Below, in pieces: positions 26,496 to 60,565 of a stretch of 64,000 nucleotides of DNA. The DNA comes from Escherichia phage ECO319P1, in sequence record OP172790; one strand, 5' to 3'. Below the pieces are notes generated by a model. That model made no database searches and was not told the DNA's origin. It saw only the letters and a program-made list of their open reading frames with translations. Position 1 is the stretch's first letter, and every line of letters starts with the position of its first letter. The position numbers and the translations under genes were made by a program.

Positions 26496-27005
26496 ATGAA
26501 GAAGATTATTGCTGTTGATATCGAACAGGCTGAAGGTGTAGGCTTTGTTGTCTACAACGAAGGAAGTGAGGTTCCCGTGAAAGCGGGAGTCTTTAAGATT
26601 GGTGATGGTGTTAAGATTAAGAATAATGATATTCTTTCTAATACCACAGCAGGCACCCTACAGGGTTTTAGCTACAGTTCAGCGAAAAACTTACTGGCTC
26701 ATATTCATTGGCTGGCTGGTGCTCCTCCGATTAAAACCCTTTTGTCAAACATTGTCCTCGACCGACCTCAGAAGTTTTGGTTAGTTGCGGGTGATATGGA
26801 GAGTACAGGGCAGCCAGCCCATGCTCACTATACAACTGGCGGTCTTCGTGACGTCCGAGCGGGGACTCATGCTCCTCGTGTTCGCTACTGGTCTGAGCAA
26901 GAAGCCATCCAGCAAGCGACTCAAATGACTAATACCTACGGAATCAGGCACTTAGTCTTTGAGGCCACATTTGGTTGTAATTCTGACAACCACTTTGCAC
27001 TATAA
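26496..27005 (+). CDS. hypothetical protein
   Basis: 169 aa ORF. Confidence 0.45.
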   Translation: MKKIIAVDIEQAEGVGFVVYNEGSEVPVKAGVFKIGDGVKIKNNDILSNTTAGTLQGFSYSSAKNLLAHIHWLAGAPPIKTLLSNIVLDRPQKFWLVAGDMESTGQPAHAHYTTGGLRDVRAGTHAPRVRYWSEQEAIQQATQMTNTYGIRHLVFEATFGCNSDNHFAL

Positions 27006-27054: not shown

Positions 27055-28854
27055 ATGTCAAAAGTATACGGAGCTAAACGGATTATCGGTGACTCACCTT
27101 GCCCAACTTGTACAGCGGCAGGTCGTGACAGAACCGGTAATCACTTGCAACACTGGATTAACGATGATACAGGCGAAGAGTGGGTTTATTGCGGACGTGA
27201 TGGTTACTATGAAAAGGTAACTGATGCAAACCGTGCTGACCTTGAATCTGTTCGTCATGTTCATCGTGAATTAACTGATGAAGAACGTGCAGCGGTTCTC
27301 GCTGAGGTTGACGAGTTGCCAATTCAGGAACTCACATCTCGTGGTATCCGAAAGGAAATCGCTGAACGTTATGGTGTTCGTGTTGGCCTGTCCAGCACTA
27401 ACCGTGAACAAATCTCTCACTTCTATCCGAAAGAGAAAGATGGTGAGGTGGTCGCTTATAAAGTTCGTAGTCTTGAGCCGAAGTATTTCTATGCGGTTGG
27501 TTCAGGTAGCGGATGTGATTTCTTTGGCATGTCTCAGGCTCGTCTGGGTGATGTGTACAGTGGCAAACTGTTCGTATTCGAAGATGAACTGAGTGCAATG
27601 TCAGGTTTCCAAGCTCTCATTGACGCATCCAAGTCAACTTACAAACCAGCATGTGTGGCTTTGCCAGATGGTGCAGGTTCGGCAGCAAGTGCATTTGCAC
27701 GTTGTCGTCAGTTTGTTGAGTCATTCCAAGATATCGTGGTCTGTATGGATAACGATGAAGCGGGTGATGATGCAGTTAACAAGCTGAGAGCGATGTATCC
27801 AAACATCAAGATTGCTCGTATTCCGAAGGGTATCTACGGTGACGGTAAGCATATCAAAGACGCCAATGACATGATTATGGCTAAGCGTTCTTTGGAGTTA
27901 AACAACTGCTTACGCTTCAATGCTGCAAAAGAATCTCCAGCAGGTTCAACAACTGTAGCGGAATGTATTGAAGATGCGCTGAAGAAACCTGAATGGGGTC
28001 TGAGTTATCCGTGGAAAGGTCTTACTGACTTAACCTTTGGTTTACGTTATGGTGAGGTGATTGCAATTGGTGGTGGTGTAGGTGGTGGTAAAACATTACT
28101 GGCACACGAACTGAGTGCTCACTTAATCAACGTTCACAAAGAGAAAGTTGGTGCATTCATGTTGGAAGAAACTGTAGGTAATACCATCAAGAACATTGCT
28201 GGTAAATCTGCAAATATTCCATTCCATCGTCCAGATGCTGAGTTCGACCCAGAACTGCTGAAAAGCGAAGCACTGAAATACGATGGTCACTTGTTCCTGT
28301 ATCGTAACTTCGGTCAAAACGATTGGGAAGATATCAAACGTTGTATGCGTTTCTGGGTTGTTGAACATGGTGTCAAGTTCATCTTCCTCGATAACATCAC
28401 AGCATTGGTATCACACTTGACAGCAACTGAGATTAACACTGAAGTTGCGAAGATTGCTGTTGAGTTGGCAGGTATGTGTAACGAGTTGGACTTCACTTGT
28501 TTTGTATTTAGCCACTTGAACCCACCGAAAGGTGGTGCTCCTCACGAGGAAGGTGGTCAAGTACAAGAGGTGCAGTTCACGGGTTCCCGTGCTCTGATGC
28601 GTTTCTCTCAGTTAATTCTGGGCTTTGAACGCAACAAGCAGGCAGATGGTGATGCTCGTAACCTTTCTCAGATTCGTCTGTTGAAAGACCGTAACTTCGG
28701 GCAGACAGGTCTTGTACCAACATCTTATAATCCAGTGACAGGCCGCTTAACACAGCGTCGTGATGAAGATTATGACCCGAAAAATCCGTTCCGCTTACCG
28801 GGTGAGCATGAGGACGACATGCAGGAAGATAATGGAAAGGATAAACCATTTTGA
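27055..28854 (+). CDS. bifunctional primase-helicase (T7 gp4-like)
   Basis: N-terminal Zn-binding Cys cluster, Toprim acidic motifs (FEDE, MDNDEAGDD), Walker A GGGVGGGKT. Confidence 0.85.
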   Translation: MSKVYGAKRIIGDSPCPTCTAAGRDRTGNHLQHWINDDTGEEWVYCGRDGYYEKVTDANRADLESVRHVHRELTDEERAAVLAEVDELPIQELTSRGIRKEIAERYGVRVGLSSTNREQISHFYPKEKDGEVVAYKVRSLEPKYFYAVGSGSGCDFFGMSQARLGDVYSGKLFVFEDELSAMSGFQALIDASKSTYKPACVALPDGAGSAASAFARCRQFVESFQDIVVCMDNDEAGDDAVNKLRAMYPNIKIARIPKGIYGDGKHIKDANDMIMAKRSLELNNCLRFNAAKESPAGSTTVAECIEDALKKPEWGLSYPWKGLTDLTFGLRYGEVIAIGGGVGGGKTLLAHELSAHLINVHKEKVGAFMLEETVGNTIKNIAGKSANIPFHRPDAEFDPELLKSEALKYDGHLFLYRNFGQNDWEDIKRCMRFWVVEHGVKFIFLDNITALVSHLTATEINTEVAKIAVELAGMCNELDFTCFVFSHLNPPKGGAPHEEGGQVQEVQFTGSRALMRFSQLILGFERNKQADGDARNLSQIRLLKDRNFGQTGLVPTSYNPVTGRLTQRRDEDYDPKNPFRLPGEHEDDMQEDNGKDKPF

Positions 28855-29345
28855 TTAAACTTGCAGCCACGGATATTGAAACGAATGGATTGTACTTTGA
28901 TGTAAATCTATTTCACTGTGCATGGATTGTGGAGCCATTAACCGGAAAACGGTTTGGCTTCCGTCCAGACCAACTTAAAGAATACGTTGAGAAGTTAATG
29001 ACTTATGACATTCTCATTGGTCACAACGTAATCGACTATGACTTCCCAACTATTAAGAAACTTTGTCCGGGATTTGAATGTCCGGCTGTTTTTGATACGT
29101 TGGTTCTTAGTCGTATGTTGGAACCAGACAGACCACAAGGTCACTCGTTGAAATCTTGGGGTGTAGCTCTTGGTTTGCTGAAAGGTGATTATGGTGAACA
29201 GGAAGATGCGTGGGACGTATTCACAGAGGACATGTATGTTTACTGTGAACGAGACGTTGACGTAACGGTTCTGCTCTATAAACACCTGTGTGAAAAGGCC
29301 GGTTTTGACTGGCAAAATCCACCATCAAATACTTTCAAATTCTGA
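28851..29345 (+). CDS. 3'-5' exonuclease domain of T7-type DNA polymerase, encoded as a separate gene
   Basis: Exo I DIETNGL, Exo II HNVIDYDF, Exo III YCERDVD; close to my recollection of T7 gp5 N-terminus; TTG start overlapping upstream stop. Confidence 0.75.
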   Translation: MIKLAATDIETNGLYFDVNLFHCAWIVEPLTGKRFGFRPDQLKEYVEKLMTYDILIGHNVIDYDFPTIKKLCPGFECPAVFDTLVLSRMLEPDRPQGHSLKSWGVALGLLKGDYGEQEDAWDVFTEDMYVYCERDVDVTVLLYKHLCEKAGFDWQNPPSNTFKF

Positions 29346-29361
29346 GTAAGGATACTCTGCG

Positions 29362-29383
29362 TTGGGTACTATAATATGTACCC
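29362..29383 (+). promoter_or_regulatory. variant promoter-like element inside a short palindrome
   Basis: TTGGGTACTATAATAT resembles the TTGCACATTATAATA core; GGGTAC/GTACCC inverted repeat around TATAAT. Confidence 0.3.
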
Positions 29384-29488: not shown

Positions 29489-30043
29489 ATGTTACTTTCT
29501 GCACCCCAACTGCATAACTTAATCGACGATGGTGTTATTGATGCGTTACATGAAAACGTTAACTCAGCAAGTATCGACGTTCGTATTGGCTCTGAAATTC
29601 TGGTGGAAGCTAAGGTCAGCGAACTCACCGCTCCCGTGGACATCGCAGCTAAGGAATCTCCTCAGTTCGACAAAGTGACAATCCCCGAAGAAGGCGTTGT
29701 TATTAAGCCGGGTCAGTGCTTCTTGGCTCACACCGTTGAGACATTTAACCTGCCCGACACTATCAGTGGTCAATTCATTGAACGTTCCACTGTTGCTCGT
29801 TGTTTCCTTGAACACATGCAGGCTGGTTGGGCTGATGCTGGTTGGCATGGCGCTCAGCTCACTCTTGAGTTCAAGAACATGAACGAACACCACTCCCTGT
29901 TAATCAAGCCGGGTATGCGTATCGGTCAGATGGTATTCTTCCAGCACGAAACTGTTGGTGAGGATTCCTATGCTGTAAAAGGCAACTACAACAACCAACG
30001 TGGTGCAACTCAAGCTTACTCAGGAGAAGGTCATAATGTATAA
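29489..30043 (+). CDS. dcd: dCTP deaminase
   Basis: dUTPase-fold Dcd-like N-terminus; 184 aa. Confidence 0.7.
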   Translation: MLLSAPQLHNLIDDGVIDALHENVNSASIDVRIGSEILVEAKVSELTAPVDIAAKESPQFDKVTIPEEGVVIKPGQCFLAHTVETFNLPDTISGQFIERSTVARCFLEHMQAGWADAGWHGAQLTLEFKNMNEHHSLLIKPGMRIGQMVFFQHETVGEDSYAVKGNYNNQRGATQAYSGEGHNV

Positions 30044-33266: not shown

Positions 33267-33276
33267 GAGGTTTAAA

Positions 33277-35704: not shown

Positions 35705-35867
35705 CCTGCAACGTCGAAATCCAGAATGTGACTGGTGTTTTTGTCTCTTACAAGTTGTAAGGGGTGAAGATTATAATGACTATTATAAATGTCCGCAATG
35801 TGGTGAGACTACTCCAATGCCTCAACCCAACTTCGACGATTACGACGATTTAGATTACTTAAATTAA
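35694..35867 (+). CDS. small zinc-ribbon protein
   Basis: CDWCFC...CPQC; start uncertain. Confidence 0.3.
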   Translation: MYRNLQRRNPECDWCFCLLQVVRGEDYNDYYKCPQCGETTPMPQPNFDDYDDLDYLN

Positions 35868-35881: not shown

Positions 35882-36027
35882 ATGGAAGATAAACAATCAA
35901 TTGCGGAATGGTGCTATACTCAGCGTGACTTGGCTTTTGCAGAAGGTCGTGTTGATGATGGCAATAATTATCAACGCCTCGGCGCAATGTGGCAAGAGCG
36001 CGAGGAGAAGAAAGCTAAGGAGGCATA
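35882..36027 (+). CDS. hypothetical small protein (48 aa)
   Basis: GGGAGAAGAG RBS; under 60 aa. Confidence 0.3.
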
Positions 36028-36369
36028 ATGCCTAGCTCTCCGGGATACGTCCGCAATTATAAACAAGAACGCTTGACAGCCATTAAACGCGGTGAAACAA
36101 GCGTAGGTGCCAAGTCTAAGGATGCAATGCGACACAAAGCTCGTCGTCTTGTTGAGAAACGACTTGGTAAGAAGTTGCCAACATCAGTTCAGGTTGACCA
36201 TAAGAAAACACTGAAATCTGGTGGTGGTAATACGAGTTCAAACTTACGAGTCCGTGATGCACATAGCAATATGTCGGCGGGTGGTAAGTCAGGTTCTCGT
36301 GCTGGTAAGGCTGCTGGTGGTCGCAAAGGTGCTAGCAAACGTTTACCGGTAAAGAAACCTAGCAAATAA
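36028..36369 (+). CDS. basic protein with HNH-like segment
   Basis: VDHKKTLKSGGGNTSSNLRVRDAHSN; Lys/Arg-rich. Confidence 0.4.
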   Translation: MPSSPGYVRNYKQERLTAIKRGETSVGAKSKDAMRHKARRLVEKRLGKKLPTSVQVDHKKTLKSGGGNTSSNLRVRDAHSNMSAGGKSGSRAGKAAGGRKGASKRLPVKKPSK

Positions 36370-37137: not shown

Positions 37138-38973
37138 ATGGAAATCACATCAAGCTGGGACAAACCGTTCCAACTCGAACAGAAAGTGGCTCACATTATT
37201 AGCCAACAAGCAAAGCATGGATGCGACTTCAATAGTCGTAATGCTCATTGGTATGTTCATCTGTTAACTGAACGTATCATCAACATTGATTTGCAGTTGG
37301 TTCCAACTCTGCCACCTATGATGCACAAAGGCACTGAATACAAGGCTCCGTTCAAGATGAATGGTAAGCCGAAGGTGTTTGTCCAGAAGTATATGGACGC
37401 TCAAGGTCTGACAGAGGATATGGTAGGTGGCCCGTTTACAGCGGTGTGGTTTACCCCGTTCGACCCAAGTAAAACTTCACGTCTAAAAGATGTGATGTTG
37501 GACATGGGGTGGATGCCTACTGAATGGAACCAGAAGAAGATGCCGTTTCAACTTTGGACGTATAAAAAGCGTCTGGAGAAGACGACCTTCCGCAAGTTCA
37601 TGGAAGAGCAGACAAGTACCGACGAACGTGAACTATTTCTTCCCTTAGTTAATGGTTTTGTTGCTCAACATTTTGTTGGGAAATCAAAAGGTTACATGAA
37701 AGCAATCCTCAGTGCTCTGGGGTTTGATTTAAAGCGTGTACCGAATTTTGACCAGATTAAGAAGCGTCTTTTGTTGAGTCAGTTCTGGCCGACTTCTCCA
37801 AAAATCACTGAAGATTCATTTGAGTCAGTAAGTGAGGAAGAAGGTCATTCACTGAAACTCCTGAAAGAGCGTATGGTGTGGTCGCACCGTCGTTCACTGA
37901 TTCAGGGTTTGATTGAACTGACTCGTCAGGATGGTAAAATCTCTGGTGAAGCTAACCCATGTGCAACTCCGACAGCACGTATGAGACACAAGGGTATTGT
38001 AAACATTCCAGCCGCAGGTGCTCCTTTCGGTGAAGAGTGTCGCTCATTGTTCCGTGGTAATAAACGTACTGGAACAAAAGCAAAGATTATTCATAAACTT
38101 ACTGCACAGATGGTTGAATCTGGTAAGTTTCGTCGTAAACCGTTCACTAATATCATGCAGGTTTCAAATGGTAAAGGTGGATGGGAAGACGAAGGTCATG
38201 TATCATTCCTGATTCCAGCGGGGCAAGATGCTTTCGTTGGTGGTGATGGTGCAGGTCTTGAACTTCGAATGTTGACTCACTACCTGATTGCAGTATCCAA
38301 AATGCTTCTGAAAGACGCTGAGGAAGCGGGTAATGATAAGTTAATCCGTTACTACGGTGCCGCTTTACAGTCAGCATATGAGTATCGTGAGGTTCTTCTG
38401 AATGGTGATATTCACAGTCACAACCAGAAGCTCGCAGGTCTGCCAACTCGTAAGTCAGCTAAGACGTTTATCTACGCATTCTTATATGGTGCTGGTGATG
38501 CGAACTTGGGTGGTCAACTTGGTGCAGGCCGTGAAGAGGGTGCAGCTTTACGTGCTCGATTCTTGAAAGAATGTCCTTGTATTCCAGTTCTGATTGAGTG
38601 GGTTCAGGATTTTGCCAAGAAGAATGGTTGGGTTCCGGCAATTGATGGTCGTAAACTTATCATGCGTCGTGACCCTTTCAGTGGCGAAGTTATGGCTCAC
38701 AAAGCACTGAATACAATGTTACAAGCAGCAGGTTCAATCGTGATGAAATATGCAGGTTGTTATCTGACTTCTTGGAATGCTCGTGATTGCTTAGATGCAC
38801 ATCAGGTTATCATGATGCACGATGAATATCAGTTCACTTGCAAATGGGAAGATGTTGAAGCTTTACGTCGTAACATTGACTCGTGTGTTAAGAAAGCTGG
38901 TGAATATTTGAAAATGGAATGTCCATTAGCGTCTGACTCAATGTTAGGTGCAAACTGGCTTCATACCCACTAA
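37138..38973 (+). CDS. family A DNA polymerase, polymerase domain only (T7 gp5-like)
   Basis: motif A DGAGLELRM, motif B KTFIYAFLYGAG, motif C HDEYQF. Confidence 0.85.
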   Translation: MEITSSWDKPFQLEQKVAHIISQQAKHGCDFNSRNAHWYVHLLTERIINIDLQLVPTLPPMMHKGTEYKAPFKMNGKPKVFVQKYMDAQGLTEDMVGGPFTAVWFTPFDPSKTSRLKDVMLDMGWMPTEWNQKKMPFQLWTYKKRLEKTTFRKFMEEQTSTDERELFLPLVNGFVAQHFVGKSKGYMKAILSALGFDLKRVPNFDQIKKRLLLSQFWPTSPKITEDSFESVSEEEGHSLKLLKERMVWSHRRSLIQGLIELTRQDGKISGEANPCATPTARMRHKGIVNIPAAGAPFGEECRSLFRGNKRTGTKAKIIHKLTAQMVESGKFRRKPFTNIMQVSNGKGGWEDEGHVSFLIPAGQDAFVGGDGAGLELRMLTHYLIAVSKMLLKDAEEAGNDKLIRYYGAALQSAYEYREVLLNGDIHSHNQKLAGLPTRKSAKTFIYAFLYGAGDANLGGQLGAGREEGAALRARFLKECPCIPVLIEWVQDFAKKNGWVPAIDGRKLIMRRDPFSGEVMAHKALNTMLQAAGSIVMKYAGCYLTSWNARDCLDAHQVIMMHDEYQFTCKWEDVEALRRNIDSCVKKAGEYLKMECPLASDSMLGANWLHTH

Positions 38974-40333: not shown

Positions 40334-40355
40334 TTATTGCACATTATAATAAGAG
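40331..40355 (+). promoter_or_regulatory. phage promoter element (TAATTATTGCACATTATAATAAGAG)
   Basis: conserved element copy. Confidence 0.55.
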
Positions 40356-40360
40356 TCACT

Positions 40361-40816
40361 ATGGCAAGAAAACCCACTGTAATTGATAACTCATTCCTTG
40401 TTGATATGTTCAATTCTATTGACGGTATCGGAGATTTGGGAAGTTGGATGCAAGATGTAATTTATGGAAGTGCTCGTCTTGGTCATTCTAACCCATCAGC
40501 AGCAGTGGCAATTTTCAAGGCTTTAGCGACTCTTCCAGTTATTAGCTTTGACACTGTAAAGCACTTCGTAAACAACAGGTCAGAGGTAATTGACCAACGT
40601 ACATTCAGTGACAGACATGTTTATGCCTTCATGAACAGAGTCTTATCAGCACGGAAAGGTATTGAGTTTTACTATGAACGTAAGACTGGTCAGAAATTTC
40701 ATAGCATTGAACCAGTGGAAGATGTTGATTCTACTGATTTTGTCTATGCTGATGGTGTAAAAGCCAGTGAATTAGTTTACGAAAATGTTGTAAGAAATCA
40801 TGGAACCGAACACTAA
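40361..40816 (+). CDS. hypothetical protein
   Basis: start at ATG 40361 downstream of promoter element. Confidence 0.5.
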   Translation: MARKPTVIDNSFLVDMFNSIDGIGDLGSWMQDVIYGSARLGHSNPSAAVAIFKALATLPVISFDTVKHFVNNRSEVIDQRTFSDRHVYAFMNRVLSARKGIEFYYERKTGQKFHSIEPVEDVDSTDFVYADGVKASELVYENVVRNHGTEH

Positions 40817-40891
40817 TGTATAGTGTCTAATGAGCGAAGGACGTTTTAACTGAGCCTTCACAATTGAGTTTTATATAAGGAAATATATCAT

Positions 40892-41659
40892 ATGTCTACT
40901 GCAATCCCTTCTACCTCCTCTTCTAAAAAATCTCGCACTGTTTATGATGCAATTGAAAACGATGTTTACGACGCACGTATCGTCCGCTTCATTGGTCTGG
41001 GTGTTCAGGAACAACCTGAATGGCAGGGTGAGAAGAAATCTCCAGCCTTTAAATGCTCCATCTCTTTTGAACTGATTGATATCGACGCAACTGGTCGCAC
41101 TTTCGAAGGTGATGAAGATAAAGTCGGTAAGCCGATTGACCCTCGTCCTTCTTGCATGTTCAAAGATTACTACCTGTTCCCAGGCGCTAAACGTGGCGGT
41201 GTGTTCGACCTGTGTAAAGCAATCGACCCATCAATCACTGAAGTTCCTCGTAATCTGGAATGGTTCATGGATAAGCTGGGTGAAGTTGTGAGTGTTGGTG
41301 TTGGTTCTTATACTACCAAAGCTGGTGTAACTCGTAACAAAGTTACTTCTGTTGGTGCTGTAAGTTCTCGTAACAAGCCTAAAGTTGGTGAAGCACGTTC
41401 TGAACTGGTTGGTTTCAACCCGTATGTAGATTCTCCGGAAATGGTTCAGGCCTACGGTAAAGTTTACAAATTCCAGCGTGACATGCTGACTGAAGCACAC
41501 GATAAAGCGAATATCCCGTTTGCTGGTAAAGAGCCAGTTAACGACAGCGGTGATGGTGAGCGTCCAAGCAACACTGAAACTCGTGAAGAGCAGAAGTACT
41601 CCAAGACTTCTAATCAAACTCCTAACGATGTTCCTTTCGACGACGATATCCCGTTCTAA
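40892..41659 (+). CDS. ssb: single-stranded DNA-binding protein with host-type acidic tail
   Basis: C-terminus ends DDDIPF as in E. coli SSB; followed by terminator. Confidence 0.6.
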   Translation: MSTAIPSTSSSKKSRTVYDAIENDVYDARIVRFIGLGVQEQPEWQGEKKSPAFKCSISFELIDIDATGRTFEGDEDKVGKPIDPRPSCMFKDYYLFPGAKRGGVFDLCKAIDPSITEVPRNLEWFMDKLGEVVSVGVGSYTTKAGVTRNKVTSVGAVSSRNKPKVGEARSELVGFNPYVDSPEMVQAYGKVYKFQRDMLTEAHDKANIPFAGKEPVNDSGDGERPSNTETREEQKYSKTSNQTPNDVPFDDDIPF

Positions 41660-41684: not shown

Positions 41685-41707
41685 GAGGCCTTCGGGCCTC
41701 TTTATTT
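41685..41707 (+). terminator. intrinsic terminator (UUCG tetraloop)
   Basis: GAGGCC-TTCG-GGCCTC then TTTATTT. Confidence 0.7.
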
Positions 41708-41731: not shown

Positions 41732-42289
41732 ATGGCAAAGCGACTAAGTGCTCCAGTTCCAAAGAAGGAACATTATAAAGACTTCGATGAATTATATCGT
41801 GAGTATTGGGCACCACTTCAGAAACAATTCTTCTACATGGAAAAGGATTATCAGCTTGCTGAGGATTTAGCTCAGGAAACGATGCTCCGAGTGTGGCAGT
41901 ATTGGGACAGAATCCAGTGGGATAAACTTGGTGGTGTGATTGGTACAATTGCCAACAACGTCCGGTACGGTTATGTTCGAAAAGAATTTGACCGAGTTGA
42001 TACAGAGATGTACGACAACATTCTGGATTTTGAATGTCATGATGATGGCTTAACTGACCCAATTCGTGATGTATTAAATAATGAGGCAAGCACTTTTGTT
42101 CAGTATGCTTTTGAGAAGCTTAAACCACAGGAACGTGAGTTGTTCTCGGATGTTTATCTGAAGAACCTGAAAACAAAAGATGTTGCAAAGAAACATGGTA
42201 TGACTACTGGCCATATCTATGTTCAATTGTTCCGTATTCGAACTCAACTGGTTACTAACCTTGAGCGTCACGATATTGGAACAAACTAA
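41732..42289 (+). CDS. phage sigma factor (sigma70 family, ECF-like size)
   Basis: region 2-like AEDLAQETMLRVWQYW and region 4 HTH-like LKTKDVAKKHGMTTGHIYVQLFRIR. Confidence 0.6.
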   Translation: MAKRLSAPVPKKEHYKDFDELYREYWAPLQKQFFYMEKDYQLAEDLAQETMLRVWQYWDRIQWDKLGGVIGTIANNVRYGYVRKEFDRVDTEMYDNILDFECHDDGLTDPIRDVLNNEASTFVQYAFEKLKPQERELFSDVYLKNLKTKDVAKKHGMTTGHIYVQLFRIRTQLVTNLERHDIGTN

Positions 42290-42301: not shown

Positions 42302-42502
42302 ATGGAAGTTGTATACCAGAACGGCATGTATGAAGTAAAAGTTAATCGGTACGATAATGAGTACCTAGTTGTTAACGTGAAGACTGATGTGGTTGAGGCT
42401 CGTGAATCGGCATTGCCCACAGCAGAATACAAAGCTGATGCTCTTCGTGAAGTTACGCTGAAACGTAATGAAGTTAAGGGTAAAGCGGAGGCAGCACAAT
42501 AA
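42302..42502 (+). CDS. hypothetical protein
   Basis: 66 aa ORF. Confidence 0.35.
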   Translation: MEVVYQNGMYEVKVNRYDNEYLVVNVKTDVVEARESALPTAEYKADALREVTLKRNEVKGKAEAAQ

Positions 42503-46772: not shown

Positions 46773-47393
46773 ATGTTAAAATTTATTTGGTCTATTATAG
46801 CCACTGTAGGTGTACTTGCTTCCTGTTACATATCTGATGCTTCTCCTATCATCACAACAGCTTCTGTCATTGGTGTCTTATTTGTTCTTGGTGTAGCTTT
46901 CAAGAATGCTTGGACAAACCTGTTAGGTGCTGCATTAACGCTGATATATGGATACCTTTCTTACAGTGCAGGTTATTATGCTAACGCACTGATAAATGTG
47001 ACAGTGCTATTCCCACTACAGTTAATAGCTTTCTGGTTCTGGAAGAAGACAGAAGGTAAGACGTTTACATTAACTGAAGATTGGAAGAAAGCAATCATAG
47101 TGTTATCTGGTATAGGTATCCTCATTTCCTGCACACTGACTAAATCCTATGGTTCACATCTTTGGCTTCATGATGGAATCTCAGCGGTATTAGTTATTGT
47201 TGCTACTTTCCTCCTGATGTTAAAAGTGAAAGAACAGTGGTATGCTTGGATTCCTTATAATGCACTTGAAGTGTTTATGTGGTTCATGGCTGCTTCTTTA
47301 AATCCTGATATGTTGGCTATCTTTGTGATGCGTAGCATCTTCTTTGCTAACTCTCTGATTGGTGCTTACGAGTGGTTCGGTAAGAAATCTTAA
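46773..47393 (+). CDS. pnuC: PnuC-like nicotinamide riboside transporter candidate
   Basis: multi-TM protein of about 206 aa with W...N..G and LINVT segments; start at ATG 46773, not the TTG inside the promoter element. Confidence 0.5.
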   Translation: MLKFIWSIIATVGVLASCYISDASPIITTASVIGVLFVLGVAFKNAWTNLLGAALTLIYGYLSYSAGYYANALINVTVLFPLQLIAFWFWKKTEGKTFTLTEDWKKAIIVLSGIGILISCTLTKSYGSHLWLHDGISAVLVIVATFLLMLKVKEQWYAWIPYNALEVFMWFMAASLNPDMLAIFVMRSIFFANSLIGAYEWFGKKS

Positions 47394-47450
47394 TAACATT
47401 CACTATTATATAATGTCATGGTTTTAATCCTCATATGTAATGGTGAATTT

Positions 47451-47579
47451 ATGAAAGTCAAAGATTATAATGAAGAACGTTGGGAACGCAACTCTGAATC
47501 AAACAAAGAGCGTAAGATTGCTAAGAAACGTTTTAAAGAGAAACATAATCCTTGGGCTAGTTTGAGTAATAAAAAATAA
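47451..47579 (+). CDS. small basic protein (42 aa)
   Basis: ORF followed directly by a terminator. Confidence 0.3.
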   Translation: MKVKDYNEERWERNSESNKERKIAKKRFKEKHNPWASLSNKK

Positions 47580-47583
47580 GTTA

Positions 47584-47609: not shown

Positions 47610-47626
47610 GTTTATGGAGGCCAAGG

Positions 47627-48583: not shown

Positions 48584-48608
48584 AGGGGCGCAATGCCCCT
48601 ATTCTTTT
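48584..48608. terminator. bidirectional intrinsic terminator between convergent gene blocks
   Basis: AGGGGC-GCAAT-GCCCCT hairpin with U-rich tract on both strands. Confidence 0.7.
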
Positions 48609-51600
48609 ATTTAATGTCTGGTGCATCAATACCAAACTCACCAATTGCCCCTTCCCCAATCGTAGCGGCTTTCTGACGTTTACGCTCCTCAGCCATCAAT
48701 TCTTTCAACTTCTTAGTTGTGTGAACAACCATATCAGAAGTATTACTCGAACCAAACACTGCAAGACGAGCACGAACACCCAAATCACCCATATACGTTG
48801 AAGTCTGGTCAGGACGACGTTTCAATGCATCATTAACTGCTCGCATATCAGACTGAGACAACCACAGGTCTGGATTGTTAGGGAACTCTTCTTTACGTTT
48901 TAGTGCATCACGAATCGCATCACGGGTCAGGCGAATTGCTTTCGCATCATCACGAAGACCTACACGGTTCAGACTACCTGCCAACGTATTAACAGAGGTA
49001 TCAAACATCTGATAACCAATGTCAGAAGTAGAACTCAGGTTTTCAGGAATATTGTTAACCAGAGCCTCAGAGATAGCACCCACTTCATCTGGATTCTTAC
49101 CCTTCATCTCAGCTTCAATAGCTTTCTTCATACTCTCTTCCACATTCCCACCTTTCACCTCAGCCTTGTCGATAGCTTCATTGAGTTTAGCTTCATCAGC
49201 TTTCTTCTTCGCAGCTTCCATACGTTCAGCTTTGGCTTTAGCTTTTTCCTGAGCAAGTTCAACACGACGAGTCTGAGCATCATTTGCTTTCTTAACATTA
49301 TCACGGAACAACTCAAGGTTATTCACCTGACGACGCCAGTTAGCAACTTCAGTAGGCTGTGCCGTATTTGGCTTAGCAAGAGCAGCTTGTAAGGCTTCCA
49401 GTTCATTATCAATGTAGCTGTGCATTTTATTCATGACACTCTTCATGCCAGAATCACTCAGGCCTACACCTTTGTTACCACGATTACGAGTACGTGTAGC
49501 TTTCTCGATTTCCTGACGGATTTCACGAGGAATTGAAACATTACCTTCACCATCTACAAACAGGTCACGAGCATATTCATTCAACTCATTGTAACTGTCT
49601 TGAGCAGTTGGTTTTGGTTTAGCCTCTGGCTTAGCAGCTTTTGACTTAGTTTCAGTCTTAGCTGGAGCTTCCTCAGCGAGCAAACGCTTAACAAAGTTAC
49701 CAACCTGACGAGCAGTATACATCTGACCTTCTGGTGCATTATCCTCAGCCATACGTACAGCACGGGAGAACAATTCATCAGTAACCATGTCAGAAGCAGA
49801 ACGCATATCAGTTTTAAGCTGTGCTACAGCCTCATCACGCTGTTTAATTGTCTTGGCCTGAGTAGACTCTTCAACATTATCAACAACACGTTGAGCGGCT
49901 GCTTTCGCATCTTCTGCCAGCTTAACCTTATACTCAGCAACAACAGAAGGCAGAGCCTCTTTAACACTGGAGTAACCACGCTCTTCCATTGTACGAGTCA
50001 GAGCATCCATACCACCGTGATAGTCGATAGCAGCATAAATACCTTGTTCAGAGATACCTGAGTTTGGCTGTGCAGCATAACGTTTGATGTTCTGCTCAGT
50101 GCTTTCACGGAACTCTTTAGCTTTACGCCATTCTGGAGTACGTGGCATTGCAGAAGAAACATCTTTGTTACGAACTTTTGAGAACTCAGCTTCACGTTGT
50201 TTCAGTGGTAGCATTACCTTCTCTTTATAGTCCACAGGTTCGCTAGGAGCCTCTGTACGGGCTTCTGGAGCTTCGGTAGTAGAAGTGCCTTCTGTAGCGG
50301 CTGGAGCTTCTTGTGGAGCCTCTGGTGCAGTCTCAACAGGTTCTTCTGCTGGAGCACGACGCTGAGAATCAACACGAGCATCCTGAGCCATCTGTTCTTG
50401 ACGAGCAGCACGTTCAGCAGCTACCACTTCTGGGTCAACTACAGGCTCATTCACAGGCGCTTCACGGCTTGGAGTACGTGCCATAGTATCATCCATAGGT
50501 GCACGAGGTGTTGGCTCTACAGGAGCTTCTACAGGCGTTTCTACAGGTGCTACAGGTTCTACTGGAGCAGTTTCCATTGGAGCAGTCGTATCTGCTGGGT
50601 TGATACCCATATCACGCAGGTTATTAGCTGCTTCATCAGCGGCTGCTGCTGTGTTACCTTGTTCCAAATGTTCCTGCATACGTGCTTGAGAAGTATTCTG
50701 TGCATTTTCGATGAATTCATCAGCCTCAGAACGTGCTTGGTCAAACGCCTTACGATTACGCATAGGGCGGAGTGCACCACGAGCCAGACGGGTTACTGTA
50801 CGTACTGGAGGAAGGCCAAACTTCATCAGGAGAGCATCAGAAGCTAAATCACCAGCAACAGCACCTTTACTATTCTCTTTACCTTCCTGTTTCAGAGTAT
50901 TTGGATTATACTCATGAATACTTGGATTCTGCGCATGGAATACATCAGAGTAAGTATAAGCTGCTTTTGCAGTCTTAACAGGGTTGAATGCAGTACCATC
51001 AAAGTTTTTCAGGTCTTTCAGCATACCAACTTCATTCAAAGCTCGCATTAGGGTGATAGAGTTGTTACGAAGTGAACCATCATCTAGTTTATGCAAAGAT
51101 TTACCAGAAGAGTATTTACTAATACCATCATCCAAGGCTTTAGCAGCATTCAGTGCAACGTTATAGTTAGGGTCAATACGACCATCAGAATATAGAGAAC
51201 TGTTTTTATCCTGAATTAAGTTAGTCAGGTTGTTACGAAGAGAACGAATAGGAGACAGAATCTCAGCATAACCTTCATCGAAAGAGTTACGGAGGTTTTT
51301 CATCTGAATTTCAGAGTTATAACCTTGTTCTTTAGCTTTCTCTTTACCGAACATCAATGGAGACATATCAGCGTACAGAGTACCACCTGCCTGTTCCAAT
51401 TCACGCTCTGATTTACCCATAATATCACGGGCTAAGTTACGACCACCAACTTCCACATCCATTGCTTTAGCAGTTAATGGAGCACCTTTACGCTGAGCAA
51501 GAGCCAAAGCTGAGAGGGCTGCATCATCTGCACCTGCCGCACTCATAGACACATCAACCATATCATTGATTTTTGCACTAGAGTCTGCTGTGATTGGCAT

Positions 51601-52521
51601 ATCCATCAATTCATTGAACTGGTTACCATATTCGTTAGCATGCTCTGCTGCGTTGTTACCAAAGTCTGAATGAACACCACCAGTTTCCTGATTGATTACA
51701 TTCACATCACTCTGAACACGACGACCATCATCATTGATTGGTCGCTGGAAACGCTGAGCAAAACCACCCATATTACGGGCTGCCATATTAGCACCATGTA
51801 AACCAGCACCTGCAACAGCACCAATACCAAATGCTTCACCTACGTTTTCGTCCCAAGGACGACCCATAGCGATGTTCTGATAAGCTGTCATAGCTGCGTT
51901 ACTTGAACCAGCCTGTGCTGCCTGAGCACCTAATTCACCTGCCACACGAGCAGTAGGACGGGTCAGACCACGAGCAATATTAACACCTTTACTTGCCAGA
52001 CCTGCTGTAGCATAGTCTGTAACACCAGATGCAATACCAGTCGTTAATGCGTTACCCATGTCGTAATTCTGACCAGCTTCCTGCTGTTGAGCAAGAGTAT
52101 CTGCTGTTGCCAGACCACCAAGAGCCACAGCACCTGCTTCTGGAGCCGCAATACCCGCTGCAACTACTGGAGCATAAGTACCAACATCAGCCGCAAAACC
52201 TGAAATAGTACCTAATTTACTACGCTCTTGCTGGTACTCTTTACTTGCAATTTTAGCTTTAGCCAGTTCATAGTCAGACGCATCTTGGTCTGTTACAGTG
52301 GCTGCTAGTACGTTACGACCCATACGTGACCAACCAGACGTCATAGTGTCCCAGATGGAACCATCATCTGCTGGCTGTGCTTGAGGAGCTTCTTGAGGGG
52401 CTTGCTGAGGGGCTGGAGTATCACTATAACCGTTTTGGTTGTTAATGTACTCAATCATCTGGTCTTGAGACGTTCCTTCCGGGAAGTTGTAAGTCTGACC
52501 ATTAAAAGTAGCACTAGGCAT
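48607..52521 (-). CDS. large virion protein (1304 aa), internal/ejection-protein-like
   Basis: GGAG RBS; long Gly/Ala-rich and coiled-coil regions; last gene of minus-strand block. Confidence 0.55.
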   Translation of the reverse strand: MPSATFNGQTYNFPEGTSQDQMIEYINNQNGYSDTPAPQQAPQEAPQAQPADDGSIWDTMTSGWSRMGRNVLAATVTDQDASDYELAKAKIASKEYQQERSKLGTISGFAADVGTYAPVVAAGIAAPEAGAVALGGLATADTLAQQQEAGQNYDMGNALTTGIASGVTDYATAGLASKGVNIARGLTRPTARVAGELGAQAAQAGSSNAAMTAYQNIAMGRPWDENVGEAFGIGAVAGAGLHGANMAARNMGGFAQRFQRPINDDGRRVQSDVNVINQETGGVHSDFGNNAAEHANEYGNQFNELMDMPITADSSAKINDMVDVSMSAAGADDAALSALALAQRKGAPLTAKAMDVEVGGRNLARDIMGKSERELEQAGGTLYADMSPLMFGKEKAKEQGYNSEIQMKNLRNSFDEGYAEILSPIRSLRNNLTNLIQDKNSSLYSDGRIDPNYNVALNAAKALDDGISKYSSGKSLHKLDDGSLRNNSITLMRALNEVGMLKDLKNFDGTAFNPVKTAKAAYTYSDVFHAQNPSIHEYNPNTLKQEGKENSKGAVAGDLASDALLMKFGLPPVRTVTRLARGALRPMRNRKAFDQARSEADEFIENAQNTSQARMQEHLEQGNTAAAADEAANNLRDMGINPADTTAPMETAPVEPVAPVETPVEAPVEPTPRAPMDDTMARTPSREAPVNEPVVDPEVVAAERAARQEQMAQDARVDSQRRAPAEEPVETAPEAPQEAPAATEGTSTTEAPEARTEAPSEPVDYKEKVMLPLKQREAEFSKVRNKDVSSAMPRTPEWRKAKEFRESTEQNIKRYAAQPNSGISEQGIYAAIDYHGGMDALTRTMEERGYSSVKEALPSVVAEYKVKLAEDAKAAAQRVVDNVEESTQAKTIKQRDEAVAQLKTDMRSASDMVTDELFSRAVRMAEDNAPEGQMYTARQVGNFVKRLLAEEAPAKTETKSKAAKPEAKPKPTAQDSYNELNEYARDLFVDGEGNVSIPREIRQEIEKATRTRNRGNKGVGLSDSGMKSVMNKMHSYIDNELEALQAALAKPNTAQPTEVANWRRQVNNLELFRDNVKKANDAQTRRVELAQEKAKAKAERMEAAKKKADEAKLNEAIDKAEVKGGNVEESMKKAIEAEMKGKNPDEVGAISEALVNNIPENLSSTSDIGYQMFDTSVNTLAGSLNRVGLRDDAKAIRLTRDAIRDALKRKEEFPNNPDLWLSQSDMRAVNDALKRRPDQTSTYMGDLGVRARLAVFGSSNTSDMVVHTTKKLKELMAEERKRQKAATIGEGAIGEFGIDAPDIK

Positions 52522-52567: not shown

Positions 52568-54217
52568 TTAATGAAACGTCACGTTGTTACGAGACGCTTT
52601 TGGTTCCCAATTCCCGATACCAGAGCCATTAGCTTGGAACTTAACTGCTGCACGAGCACGGTCGGCACCAATCTTAGGAATAAGGTTTTCGTACATTGAC
52701 TGAAGGTTGTCAACAACAACTTGGTGTTCAGTGTTGATACCACGGTTAGAAGATGCAATAGCACGTTCAATCTCACCAGAGGTAGGAGCACCACGTACAC
52801 CACGAACAACTGCGTTAGAAGCCTGACCCCACCAAGTACGTGGGCCTGCAATATCAGACGCATCATGACGGTCGATTTTACCCAAACCACCCTGCATTGC
52901 TTTACCATATGATTCCTCATACTGGTCATAAGCTGCTGCTGCACCTGCGGTATCACCTGCTTCAAGTAACTGTTTCGCTTTCTGGGCTGCTTCTTGAGCA
53001 ACTGCCATACGAGAACGTTTAAGGTTACTATCATCGGTAAATTTCTTACCTTGCTGGAGAACCATACGTGCTTCTGGGTTTGTAATACCCCACTCTGGGT
53101 CTTCACCTGCTGCTGCCTGTTTAGCTGCATACTTCGATTTCTCAAAGTTGAGACGCTCACGAGACAGACCAAGCTGAGCATTAGAGTTCGCAATTGAGTT
53201 ACGAATCTGCGCTTCAGTGAGAGCATCTTTACGCTGTTCACGACCAAGCTGATACTGACGCATTTCAGGAGAACCTTCGTACAGTGCATTATCAAGCTGC
53301 TGCATCTGGAGTCTCTGCTGAATCATCTTCATCTGTTTCTCTTGTGGAGAAGTCAGAACTTTAGAATCACCAGTACGTTTCCACTCTTCGATTTCAACAG
53401 GGTCATAGCCTTGCTTAGCCAAATCTTCAGCCCAATAGCTTCGACGTTCTTCACCATACATCTGGTTGAACGCTTCACCTGCTGCACCAAAAGATGTTGC
53501 CAAATCATTACCGCTTAACAGGTTCAGACCAAAAGAGATAAGACCCATGTTAAAAGAGTTAGATTTGTACCAAGCAGGAATCTTGTTCTGGTCAAAAGCA
53601 GCCTGTTTACCTTGAGCATTCAAATTCATATCCTGAACTTGAGTCTGAGTAGGAGGAGTTGGTAATGGTGTATTTACATTACCTGAGAAGCCACCAACAC
53701 CTTTTGATTTATTTTCATTCAGTGCTGAGATGTGACCAACGGGGTCTTGACCTGCATCTGGGACTTGTTTATATCCCTGAGCCTGTAAATCAGCCTGTTT
53801 CTGCTGACTCTCTTGGATACCCGCTTGAATCTCATTCTGCTTATCCTGTGCCTGAGTTGCTGGAGTACTTAAAGCACCTTGCATATCCTTTGCTTTATAG
53901 CTTTTATAAGCTGCAAGCTCCTCTGGAGAGGCTGGATACTGACCACCATGTTCTGCTGCATAATCACGTTCAGCCATAGAATCTGATACATAGTTTGCTG
54001 TTGGGCCGACTACATAATCAGACAATGGTTGAGCAACATACCTGTTTGTCAAATCATTTGCATATAAATACGCATCTTTAGGTACATTAAGAACAGCCTT
54101 ACCAGCATCAATCAAGCTGTTAAGTGTAGACTTACTATTAGAAGTCTGAGGGTTATAGTTACCAGAAATGGTATCAATCATACCACTTGCGGAAACACCA
54201 TCATACATGCCAGCCAT
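52568..54217 (-). CDS. virion protein (549 aa)
   Basis: AAGGAGG RBS; Gln-rich coiled-coil. Confidence 0.5.
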   Translation of the reverse strand: MAGMYDGVSASGMIDTISGNYNPQTSNSKSTLNSLIDAGKAVLNVPKDAYLYANDLTNRYVAQPLSDYVVGPTANYVSDSMAERDYAAEHGGQYPASPEELAAYKSYKAKDMQGALSTPATQAQDKQNEIQAGIQESQQKQADLQAQGYKQVPDAGQDPVGHISALNENKSKGVGGFSGNVNTPLPTPPTQTQVQDMNLNAQGKQAAFDQNKIPAWYKSNSFNMGLISFGLNLLSGNDLATSFGAAGEAFNQMYGEERRSYWAEDLAKQGYDPVEIEEWKRTGDSKVLTSPQEKQMKMIQQRLQMQQLDNALYEGSPEMRQYQLGREQRKDALTEAQIRNSIANSNAQLGLSRERLNFEKSKYAAKQAAAGEDPEWGITNPEARMVLQQGKKFTDDSNLKRSRMAVAQEAAQKAKQLLEAGDTAGAAAAYDQYEESYGKAMQGGLGKIDRHDASDIAGPRTWWGQASNAVVRGVRGAPTSGEIERAIASSNRGINTEHQVVVDNLQSMYENLIPKIGADRARAAVKFQANGSGIGNWEPKASRNNVTFH

Positions 54218-54750
54218 TACTGACCTCCTTGCATCTGAGCAGCCTGTTCAGGGGTAACACCCTCTGGAGGAACACCTTGAGGCTCCTGCTGCTGAGGTTG
54301 CTGACCTGAGAATTGGTTGATAATACCCATAATCTGCTGCTGTTCTTGTTCTGCTTTTGCTTTTTCCATGAGAGGTTTCTCATTACGCTGGAAATGGGCA
54401 GCAGAGTCTTGTACAAACTGACGAAGACGTTGTTCAGCGATTGGCTGTGGCATATAACCCTGTTTAACCTGTTCACGAAGACCAGTGGCAAGCTGTGTTA
54501 ATTCATCCATGACACCACCAAAATACGGGTCATTCTGTTTGAAGTGGTCAAAGTTTTGATAGAAAGTAGATTCTTTATAGGAATTATCTTCTTCTGGCTT
54601 TGGTGACTGTCCCGTAGGAACACCACTTGGGGGTTGATTGGTTTGGGGACGATTGATAGGAAGGCCAGAAGCCTGAGCAATTTCGTCAGCACGTTGACGA
54701 CGCTGAGCCTCTAGTTCTCCCATTCGTTCCAAATAAGCATTAGTGGCCAT
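54217..54750 (-). CDS. Gln-rich structural or assembly protein
   Basis: 177 aa ORF. Confidence 0.45.
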   Translation of the reverse strand: MATNAYLERMGELEAQRRQRADEIAQASGLPINRPQTNQPPSGVPTGQSPKPEEDNSYKESTFYQNFDHFKQNDPYFGGVMDELTQLATGLREQVKQGYMPQPIAEQRLRQFVQDSAAHFQRNEKPLMEKAKAEQEQQQIMGIINQFSGQQPQQQEPQGVPPEGVTPEQAAQMQGGQ

Positions 54751-54760: not shown

Positions 54761-55609
54761 TTATTTGATTCTTAACGGGGAATACATTGGTTGACTATAA
54801 ATATCATTCATAGTTCTAGTTAGTAGCTGATTTTCCATTTTATTACCACGGAAGTTGGCCCTGTACGCTGGAGCAAGTTGTGGGGCACTAACACGCTGCT
54901 GTTCTTGCTCATTTGGTTTCACACTATTAATAACACGAGAAACCTGACTCCAAGTATTTGGGTCACTTAGTGCAGAACCACTAGAAGCACCAGTTGATGT
55001 AGGAACAGTGCCAAGAGCGCTTGCGGATGCTGGAGCACTTGCTGCACCATAAGTACCACCTGATGCTGCTGCACCTTGAGTTGTTAACATAGCAGGCGTG
55101 AAAGAAGATGCACCAGCAGTAGAACCAGCAGCACCGACACCAGCATGACCCATGCTAAGCAAAGACGAGGTTGCTGGCGCTGAGCTTGCCAATGCACCAC
55201 CTGTGGTAGAAACACCACCGGCTGCTGTAGGAGCCATATAAGCACCTGCACCCACACCGCCAACTGCACTAGCACCTGTACCTGCTGCTCCAGCACCACC
55301 CGCCCCTGCTGCACCTGCCGTACCAGCAGCACCCGCACCATAAGCACCAGCCGCAGCCCAACCACCAAAGATTGTACCAACAACTGCTGCTGCTGTTTCT
55401 TGTGGGTGTTTACCTACCCAACCACCAATCCCACCCTTACCAAGCATCTGACTATCATTTCGCTCGTTCTGACCCGGAATCTTCTTCAGCGTATCAAAAC
55501 CATGCTTTGGGTCTTTGATAATATCACGAGTTACTTGAAAAGGTTGTTCAATAAGTTCACCTGCACGATGAATACCACCTTTAAACAGACCACCTAAATC
55601 GAATCCCAT
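54761..55609 (-). CDS. Gly/Ala-rich virion protein
   Basis: start at ATG 55609 after GGAGG; track start was a TTG inside the RBS. Confidence 0.5.
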   Translation of the reverse strand: MGFDLGGLFKGGIHRAGELIEQPFQVTRDIIKDPKHGFDTLKKIPGQNERNDSQMLGKGGIGGWVGKHPQETAAAVVGTIFGGWAAAGAYGAGAAGTAGAAGAGGAGAAGTGASAVGGVGAGAYMAPTAAGGVSTTGGALASSAPATSSLLSMGHAGVGAAGSTAGASSFTPAMLTTQGAAASGGTYGAASAPASASALGTVPTSTGASSGSALSDPNTWSQVSRVINSVKPNEQEQQRVSAPQLAPAYRANFRGNKMENQLLTRTMNDIYSQPMYSPLRIK

Positions 55610-58900: not shown

Positions 58901-59779
58901 TTATGCAGTACGACGGAACATGTAAACCACAATATATGGTTGGATGTTGTTGTGTTTTTGGTTACCACCCGTGGTCTGTACACCACCAGTAATCTGGAGT
59001 GAGTGTTCATGAGCACCATCAGTTGTAGTACGATAAATACCACCATTACCACCGTGAGAACGAGCATCATAGTTAATGTAACGTTCTTTATAGTTAAATG
59101 CTTCCAAACCATCATCACCCATGAACAAGTGATAGTGAGCACCGTTAGAAAGTGCACGACCACCAATATCATGTGGGTGTGAGTGAGCAGGCATTTCACC
59201 AGTAGTTAGTGTGTGATAATATTTACCACCTTGTGCCAGAACAGTGTTGTAGTTAATAGAATCAGTACCATCGTTACCAACACCATAACCAACAAGAACA
59301 CGACCCGGAGCAAACTGCTGCCAAGTACCGAAACCAAACAGGTCGGCTGGGTTTGTTGCAGTCGCTGAAATGTAGATAGAACCTACAGGCCATGATGCCA
59401 CCATACCACCATTACGTTCCAGATAACGACGAGATACCGCATCATCAAGACCAGCATCACCAGCACGAGGCAGTGGGACACCAGTTACAACGTTTTTATT
59501 GGTATTGATACCATCTTTGTTGAAGTTAATGGTCTTAGAAGTACCAGTCATTAAGAAAGTTTTGTTACAGCTAACGGAGTCAGCATCGAACTTCAAGTTT
59601 GCGTCTAACAAGTTCATAGTATCAGAACTGATAGTAAGCTTCTTATTAAAGCTTGAGAAAGTGTTAGTCAGAGTGGTTTTGATAAGACGAATGTGGTCGT
59701 CACCCTCTTTGATTAAGTCACCGCTCAGAGGCCAAGAAGTATTAAGTTCGCTGACAAATCCAGCCTTCTCTACCGTCAT
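58901..59779 (-). CDS. tail fiber protein
   Basis: Gly-rich; HSHPH motif near C-terminus. Confidence 0.5.
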   Translation of the reverse strand: MTVEKAGFVSELNTSWPLSGDLIKEGDDHIRLIKTTLTNTFSSFNKKLTISSDTMNLLDANLKFDADSVSCNKTFLMTGTSKTINFNKDGINTNKNVVTGVPLPRAGDAGLDDAVSRRYLERNGGMVASWPVGSIYISATATNPADLFGFGTWQQFAPGRVLVGYGVGNDGTDSINYNTVLAQGGKYYHTLTTGEMPAHSHPHDIGGRALSNGAHYHLFMGDDGLEAFNYKERYINYDARSHGGNGGIYRTTTDGAHEHSLQITGGVQTTGGNQKHNNIQPYIVVYMFRRTA

Positions 59780-60027
59780 TTATGTTTCTCCCGTTGGTTC
59801 AAATTATTTACTAAATCAGAGAGTGTTTTAATAGTTTCTGATTGAACTGCCTGAGTCTTATCAATCCTATTCAGAATCTCCCTCGTTGTGTTAACGATGC
59901 TCCCCTGTTCAGCCTGTGTGCTTTTGAGAATCTGTACATCCACATATGTGTTTATACCGACACCAATCGAAGCGACAGATAACGAGGTGGCTACACCGAT
60001 AAGAATATTTCTTAGTGCGTCTTCCAT
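59776..60027 (-). CDS. small single-TM protein
   Basis: TM segment ILIGVATSLSVASIGVGI. Confidence 0.4.
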   Translation of the reverse strand: MEDALRNILIGVATSLSVASIGVGINTYVDVQILKSTQAEQGSIVNTTREILNRIDKTQAVQSETIKTLSDLVNNLNQREKHK

Positions 60028-60088
60028 TTCATTTTTTCCTTAATTAACCGCCAATAACATTTCTATTAGTGACGGTTAAGGGAAAAGA

Positions 60089-60565
60089 TTACTTATTACT
60101 CTCTGGGTCAGGGTCTTCTGGGAATTCAGAACGTTTCCACTCTGCATACTTATCAATGAAGTCTTTATACTTAATTAAGAAGTCTGCATACTTAACACCA
60201 AAATCTGTATACTGAGTTGTGAACCCATCAATCATCTTCTGAGTGTTGGTAATCATACCGCTCAATGTGGTAATCTGAGTGTTAGTTTCAGTGACCTGTT
60301 TATCAATCACAGCAACCTGAGCCTGAATGTATTTCAGAGATTCAGCAGCAAAGTCTGCCTGTTCTTGTGCAGATTCAGCAGCCTCCTGAGCCTCTGATAC
60401 CCAAACAGCCAAATCTTTTACACCAGAAAGGTCACGAGAAGTCCAACCAAATTGACCTGCGTTTGGAAGAGAAGCTTCTGTAATCATGACTGCTGAGTTT
60501 GGGTCAGTTGCCATTGGGTTAACACGGAGTACACGACGTACCCCGTTAGAACTATACAAAGCCAT
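60089..60565 (-). CDS. structural protein
   Basis: 158 aa ORF. Confidence 0.45.
   Translation of the reverse strand: MALYSSNGVRRVLRVNPMATDPNSAVMITEASLPNAGQFGWTSRDLSGVKDLAVWVSEAQEAAESAQEQADFAAESLKYIQAQVAVIDKQVTETNTQITTLSGMITNTQKMIDGFTTQYTDFGVKYADFLIKYKDFIDKYAEWKRSEFPEDPDPESNK

Follow-up and report, generated by a model that had tools for sequence, protein, structure and literature searches.

The locus examined here raises a double question: does a phage-encoded sigma factor redirect the RNA polymerase (RNAP) of the host, and if so, did it take the place of an RNAP that the phage lineage once carried? A reading made from the sequence only had proposed both, for what we call the window, i. e. 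the whole stretch of 64,000 nucleotides from Escherichia phage ECO319P1 (record OP172790). The first proposal held up in our analysis, and the second did not. We are highly confident that the product of this gene is a Crifsvirus late sigma factor, the ortholog of gp47 of Salmonella phage 7-11, which redirects the host RNAP to late promoters with no phage RNAP taking part. The gene is the following:

41732..42289, + strand: putative gene of a late sigma factor, of the ECF type within the sigma-70 family (open reading frame; Pfam, NCBIfam and PHROG matches)

The open reading frame occupies exactly these coordinates from ATG to stop, encodes 185 aa and is preceded by an AAGGA Shine-Dalgarno / ribosome-binding site, 7 nt 5′ of the ATG. 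Both of the regions that had led to its being called a sigma70-family protein, regions 2 and 4, passed the curated Pfam cut-offs in an HMM search: residues 22-82 match Sigma70_r2 (PF04542, 27.5 bits for a cut-off of 24) and residues 124-173 match Sigma70_r4_2 (PF08281, 27.9 bits for a cut-off of 25.7), so this part of the sequence-only reading was confirmed. The NCBIfam model TIGR02937, sigma70-ECF, spans residues 17-175 with 63.5 bits (cut-off 42.9), and PHROG 1740, 'RNA polymerase sigma factor', matches the protein with E = 6.6e-42. No Sigma70_r1 or Sigma70_r3 domain was found in it by Pfam at E <= 1, and with each of the specific ECF subfamily models its score stayed far under the cut-off. 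The protein is a two-domain (sigma2 + sigma4 only) factor of the ECF type of the sigma-70 family.

Bacterial group-4 (ECF) sigmas share with it the sigma2/sigma4 architecture, the length of ~185 aa and a TIGR02937 score above the cut-off. They also share a DLAQET-type core-binding motif, found at residues 45-50 of the window sigma. Two features set the phage protein apart from its bacterial counterparts. The usual ECF promoters are of the GGAAC/CGT type, whereas the phage promoter consensus is GTAA/ACTA (see below). In addition, the window sigma has no recognisable cognate anti-sigma next door, a partner that is typical of ECF sigmas though not a defining trait of them: Pfam and PHROG searches detected no anti-sigma domain in either of its two neighbours, whose PHROGs have no assigned function:

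40892..41659, + strand: 255-aa gene next to the sigma gene on its 5′ side, homologous to 7-11 gp48 and phiEco32 gp40 (phrog_6599; no Pfam match)
42302..42502, + strand: 66-aa open reading frame directly 3′ of the sigma gene, homolog of 7-11 gp46 and GAP52 gp74 (phrog_26830, E = 1.8e-36; no Pfam match)

The homolog of the first of these in Salmonella phage SeKF_80 is annotated as a single-strand DNA-binding protein, and the second is conserved in Crifsvirus phages and 7-11.

The phage is a Crifsvirus (Grimontviridae) podophage, belonging to the 7-11 subgroup of the phiEco32-like podophages of C3 morphotype. With the segment 40000-46000 as query, megablast retrieved Cronobacter phages A24, with 92.6% identity, and GAP52, with 90.9%; Salmonella phage 7-11 and relatives of it were more distant matches. 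The whole window is collinear with A24, at ~87% nucleotide identity over the shared 63 kb, and covers A24 coordinates 540, across the genome ends, to 12164. About 11.6 kb of the genome thus lie outside the window, and their A24 equivalent holds tRNAs and the terminase, portal, scaffold, capsid and tail-tubular genes. The genome, ~75 kb in A24, is organised in two divergent arms, one early/middle and one structural. Nucleotide identities of ~87-93% to A24 and GAP52 suggest that the window phage is a separate species; the three have collinear genomes and the same promoter set. One gene sets GAP52 apart: the HNH endonuclease gp71 (L009 2897-3262), inserted between the homologs of 40337..40816 and 40892..41659, is found neither in the window nor in A24.

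At the protein level, the window sigma is 97.8% identical to its A24 counterpart (QQG33663), 95.6% to GAP52 gp73 and 78% to 7-11 gp47. These genes and most of the other matches carry the annotation 'RNA polymerase (ECF) sigma factor', and homologs were found in 36 phage records across Grimontviridae, the hosts being Aeromonas, Proteus, Salmonella, Cronobacter and Vibrio. The order gp48 homolog, hairpin, sigma, gp46 homolog and 5′-3′ exonuclease is common to the window, A24, GAP52 and 7-11.

The search for a phage RNAP was negative. Pfam detected no RNA_pol domain in the 10 largest open reading frames of the window. T7 RNAP and the N4 RNAPII subunits gp15/gp16 were run by tblastn and phmmer against the six reading frames of the window, and likewise against A24 and 7-11, with a best E value of ~0.02. 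Positive controls behaved as they should: T7 RNAP recovered itself, and N4 gp16 recovered T7 RNAP at 7e-7. The complete genomes of A24 and 7-11 stand in here for the ~11.6 kb outside the window, and neither contains an annotated RNA polymerase. Nor was an RNAP remnant detectable with tblastn and phmmer in the window, A24 or 7-11. The statement that the window has no single-subunit RNAP was therefore upheld by Pfam, tblastn and phmmer alike, and no T7-type RNAP turned up elsewhere in the genome, as represented by its two complete stand-ins. These searches support the view that the phage lacks an RNA polymerase of its own. The phiEco32-like / Grimontviridae podophages of C3 morphotype have been described as using the host RNAP throughout.

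The idea of a replacement would require more, namely that a T7-like ancestor lost its single-subunit RNAP, the role of which was taken over by an acquired sigma. In its favour, the phage is a podovirus and has homologs of T7 gp4 (the primase-helicase) and of T7 gp5 (the family-A DNA polymerase). T7 gp4 matches the window primase-helicase with 28% identity (E = 4e-32), while the Pfam domain Helic-prim_T7_N, at 26.7 bits, falls just under its cut-off of 27. T7 gp5 matches two window genes, at 27-30% identity:

28851..29345, + strand: 3′-5′ exonuclease subunit of the family-A DNA polymerase, 164 aa (T7 gp5 match)
37138..38973, + strand: polymerase subunit of the family-A DNA polymerase, 611 aa (T7 gp5 match)

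These two genes lie ~8 kb apart, and the same split is annotated in the 7-11 record. T7 ligase, SSB, exonuclease and gp2 gave no BLAST match in the window at E <= 0.01. The replication module had been described as T7-like; this is right for the gp4 and gp5 homologs, at ~28% identity, but does not extend to the ligase, SSB and exonuclease, nor to an intact gp5. To judge from the annotation notes of the 7-11 record, the distant replisome homology is shared with phiEco32. Such homology to T7 does not imply Autographiviridae ancestry or a lost RNAP. Other observations also speak against a loss: the genome of ~75 kb has a different architecture, with its divergent early/middle and structural arms; A24, 7-11 and the phiEco32 group are without RNAP and described as host-RNAP dependent; and no remnant of the enzyme is detectable. 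The lineage is not known to have had an RNAP, and the only T7 likeness is that of the distant gp4 and gp5 homologs. We therefore abandoned the idea that the sigma replaced a phage RNAP, as we consider this scenario very unlikely.

A redirection of the host RNAP is another matter, for which the ortholog in 7-11 is informative. The window sigma and 7-11 gp47 align over their full length (78% over 182 aa, E = 9e-94). Residues 42-92, which make up most of the Pfam region-2 match, are the same in both proteins except for position 51; region 2 of sigma factors recognises the −10 element. Region 4.2 carries a few substitutions, and the GTAA element is still kept.

Purified 7-11 gp47 (SaPh711_gp47) binds stably to E. 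coli core RNAP, and sigma-70 is unable to displace it once the complex is formed (Lavysh et al. 2022, Viruses 14:555, PMC8948821). The gp47 holoenzyme forms open complexes and initiates in vitro at 8 promoters with the consensus GTAAtg-N16-aCTA, located upstream of genes 1, 8, 12, 16, 22, 28, 48 and 69. In vitro, the late promoters are transcribed only when gp47 is added to the host core; 7 of the 8 gp47 promoters were seen in vivo as well, with transcripts that build up late in infection (PMC8948821). Early transcription in 7-11 starts at the end of the genome, from two promoters of the host sigma-70 type that were validated in vivo; infection does not shut off host transcription, and the phage has no homolog of phiEco32 gp79 (PMC8948821). 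By analogy with this 78%-identical ortholog, the window sigma would bind the host core, have the same promoter specificity and act late.

The two phages are alike in the neighbourhood of the sigma gene, in the presence of GTAAnn-N16-ACTA promoters at syntenic sites and of a UUCG hairpin, and in the lack of a gp79 homolog. They differ in classification, as the window phage is a Crifsvirus with Cronobacter-type relatives whereas 7-11 is a Moazamivirus, and in genome size, that of 7-11 being 90 kb compared to the smaller 75 kb of A24.

Cognate promoters were looked for with the regular expression GTAA-N18-ACTA, which recovers all 8 of the published 7-11 promoters. It yielded 8 matches in the window for 1.84 expected, and none of 100 shuffles reached 8. 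All eight are on the locally coding strand. Seven of them are kept in A24, each upstream of genes, and five of these seven are syntenic with mapped 7-11 promoters:

26977..27002, + strand: predicted sigma-dependent promoter before the primase/helicase gene 27055..28854 (GAP52 P46 by position)
29346..29371, + strand: predicted sigma-dependent promoter before the dCTP deaminase gene 29489..30043 (GAP52 P48 by position)
35757..35782, + strand: predicted late promoter before the small open reading frame 35882..36028 (7-11 P69; GAP52 P59 by position)
40790..40815, + strand: predicted late promoter GTAAGA-N16-ACTA before 40892..41659 and the sigma gene (7-11 P48, mapped; GAP52 P71 by position)
47380..47405, + strand: predicted late promoter before 47418..47579 and the endonuclease/spanin-like cassette (7-11 P28; GAP52 P86 by position)
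54821..54846, − strand: predicted late promoter before the structural gene 54217..54750 (−) (7-11 P22; GAP52 P92 by position)
60067..60092, − strand: predicted late promoter before the structural gene 59776..60027 (−) (7-11 P16; GAP52 P98 by position)

The eighth match, at 52271-52296, lies within a gene and has no counterpart in A24, and was discarded as probably due to chance. A24 has two further motif sites, in the part outside the window, which brings its total to nine, the number of gp47-type promoters predicted in GAP52 (Table S4 of PMC8948821). The hexamers given there for GAP52 are consistent with those in A24 and the window. Furthermore, 7-11 has a matching motif site before its own dCTP deaminase gene, gp81.

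At two of these sites, the alignments separate the promoter elements from what lies between them. Comparison of the P48 equivalent with 7-11 P48 shows GTAAG and CACTAA kept and the spacer diverged; at the primase/helicase site, GTAAT and ACTA are kept between the window and A24 with a different spacer. Conserved GTAA and ACTA flanking a diverging spacer argue for selection on both elements. The spacing itself differs at the primase/helicase promoter between the window (16) and the corresponding P84 of 7-11 (17).

The biochemistry of 7-11 gp47 (PMC8948821), together with the enrichment of the cognate motif in this genome, bears out the redirection of host RNAP that had been proposed from the sequence. 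The domain scores of the window protein, only modestly above the cut-offs, could leave room for a sigma-like decoy or repressor, which would sequester core RNAP or bind DNA rather than act as an initiation factor. We find this extremely improbable: the 7-11 ortholog gives promoter-specific initiation and open complexes in vitro (PMC8948821), region 2 hardly differs between it and the window protein, and the cognate promoters are kept at syntenic sites while their spacers diverge.

As an initiation factor, the window sigma may not be strictly 'late', given the promoters found before two replication genes. The predicted promoter at 40790-40815 would allow positive feedback on the sigma gene itself, as was proposed for sigma expression in 7-11 (PMC8948821).

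Two further observations were made on the promoter set. Most of the GTAA-N16-ACTA promoters of the window, A24 and 7-11 have a conserved (A/T)ATGT ∼6-10 nt 3′ of ACTA, approximately where transcription was placed to start in PMC8948821. The small-gene/endonuclease/spanin-like cassette at 47380-48504 (+), with its own late promoter, runs against the direction of the structural genes, in contrast to gp28-30 of 7-11, which are co-directional with theirs. This means that the cassette and its promoter have undergone a joint inversion with respect to the structural module.

What is left of the RNAP question concerns one virion protein:

48607..52521, − strand: 1304-aa virion/ejection-module protein (no Pfam or PDB sequence match; PHROG family of unknown function)

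That this protein, or another one, is a cryptic RNAP not recognisable by its sequence, with the sigma then being only part of the programme, deserves almost no credence: besides the lack of Pfam and PDB matches, it has in its favour a similarity to N4 gp15 over 66 aa, with 32% identity and a tblastn E value of 0.017 in A24 and 0.043 in the window, which we treated as spurious since phmmer did not support it (E > 1) and the PDB sequence search was empty, and against it the position of the gene among ejection/tail genes, like those of T7 gp16-type internal proteins, and the fact that sigma-70 early and gp47 late promoters leave no unexplained transcript class in 7-11 (PMC8948821).

Another phage sigma factor to compare with is gp36 of phiEco32 (structure 9M7Y, PMC12276001), which comes from a related podophage of C3 morphotype, is encoded at a similar genome position, and has a similar role, since it redirects the host core RNAP to non-early promoters. 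The resemblance in sequence is limited: only 49 N-terminal residues, in region 2, align with the window sigma (37% identity, pairwise E = 1e-8), and the PDB match of the window sigma to 9M7Y has an E value of 4.9e-5. We found no significant Pfam region-4 match in gp36, which has been reported to be without region-4 homology and to use a single-element promoter, tAATGTAtA; the authors argue that the gp36 and gp47 sigma genes were acquired independently (PMC8948821). Moreover, gp36 works with gp79, which displaces sigma-70, whereas the window has no gp79 homolog: the best E value in the window, A24 and 7-11 was ∼2.8 (tblastn, phmmer). The gp36 promoter consensus, TAATGTATA, has 2 exact copies in the window for 0.37 expected, which is not significant, as 7 of 100 shuffles reach two:

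30034-30042, + strand: copy of TAATGTATA, made of a TAATG stop/start overlap and then TATAAG where the next gene begins (in A24, not in 7-11)
40814-40822, + strand: copy of TAATGTATA, overlapping the −10 ACTA of the P48-equivalent promoter (in A24 and GAP52, not in 7-11)

The second copy precedes the homolog of phiEco32 gp40, and in phiEco32 itself a P40 occupies the equivalent position. We nevertheless regard both copies as coincidental, and do not count TAATGTATA as a promoter class in the window. With an alignment restricted to 49 residues, no gp79 and no TAATGTATA promoter set, a system of the phiEco32 type was rejected.

The remaining element of the locus is a hairpin in the interval between the gp48 homolog, 40892..41659, and the sigma gene:

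41685..41707, + strand: hairpin GAGGCC-UUCG-GGCCUC followed by TTTATTT, stem-loop at 41685-41700 (sequence, fold and terminator scan)

The hairpin and its T-tract lie 25 nt upstream of the sigma ATG, and a terminator scan flags 41685-41707 as terminator-like. At the same place, 7-11 has GCCCUC-UUCG-GAGGGC followed by TTCTTTT, so that the two stems are wholly different and yet complementary, i. e. they covary in full. Such compensatory changes between genera argue that the hairpin structure is under selection, whatever its function, which they do not tell apart. The hairpin had already been noted in 7-11 and GAP52, with a suggested role in RNA stability or processing (PMC8948821). The loop is printed there as GTTCGG, while it is CTTCGG in the sequences of the window, A24, GAP52 and 7-11.

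By its sequence, the element resembles an intrinsic terminator, or else a hairpin that stabilises RNA, and the role of a leaky terminator would be as compatible with it as the published one in stability or processing. The promoter scan found no sigma-70-like promoter on the + strand between 41659 and the sigma start codon, in agreement with 7-11, where no sigma-70 promoter was found directly before the sigma gene (PMC8948821). A tentative idea, to which we give rather less than an even chance, is that the cUUCGg hairpin acts as a leaky terminator gating the sigma-70 read-through and, together with the sigma-dependent promoter upstream, makes up an early-to-late switch that would first delay and then latch.

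Candidates for the early promoters are found at the left end of the window. Positions 1-1775 are AT-rich (GC 0.37), with no open reading frame of at least 100 aa before 1734, and the early sigma-70 promoters of 7-11 sit at the equivalent genome end (PMC8948821). Two sites, directed into the early genes, are listed:

929-958, + strand: candidate host sigma-70 early promoter TTGACA-18-TAGAAT (consensus match only)
1121-1149, + strand: candidate host sigma-70 early promoter TTGACA-17-TATCCT with TG (consensus match only)

The count of sigma-70 consensus matches is not enriched over shuffles. In the same region, the segment 404-528 aligns with the two termini of the A24 record, as a short terminal repeat might do.

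The programme that we propose would run as follows. Host sigma-70 holoenzyme would initiate at the early promoters of the left end, which is non-coding, and read rightward through the early and replication genes, until read-through arrives at the sigma gene. The cUUCGg hairpin and U-tract in front of this gene would probably modulate the read-through or the stability of the mRNA. Once made, the phage sigma would take the place of sigma-70 on the host core RNAP and direct the latter to the bipartite GTAAnn-N16-ACTA promoters, i. e. those of the minus-strand structural genes, of the endonuclease/lysis cassette, of some replication genes, and of its own operon, hence a positive feedback. No phage RNA polymerase would be involved at any step.

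All that is substantial here is already published or deposited: the annotation of the gene, the mechanism of the ortholog, the promoter consensus, the promoter set of GAP52 (∼91% identical in the segment aligned) and the hairpin. With the window, there is a further Crifsvirus-like genome whose transcription programme can be read from that of 7-11, sigma-70 being used early and then an ECF-type sigma acting on GTAA-N16-ACTA. Our additions are modest and comparative, namely the promoter elements kept with diverged spacers and the compensatory changes in the hairpin. Both support the published model, and they could guide experiments on the timing of sigma expression.

Two other features of the window were recorded. 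The first is an early open reading frame of 166 aa at 5663-6163 (+), with no Pfam match. Its PHROG matches are to 'decoy of host sigma70', with E = 1.3e-22, to 'Srd anti-sigma factor', with E = 9.7e-16, and also to HNH/endonuclease families. It is the homolog of the 'putative anti-sigma factor Srd' of A24 and of 7-11 gp129. Its product could modulate host sigma-70, although there is no host shut-off in 7-11 (PMC8948821). The second is a series of auxiliary metabolic genes typical of phiEco32-like phages, at 7268-8932, 16995-22246 and 31089-34943 (+). They comprise NAMPT, a glutamine amidotransferase/amidoligase cluster, the anaerobic ribonucleotide reductase NrdD and the RNA ligase RtcB, to which the A24 annotation adds a PRPP synthetase, an ATP-grasp enzyme and RNA ligase 2.
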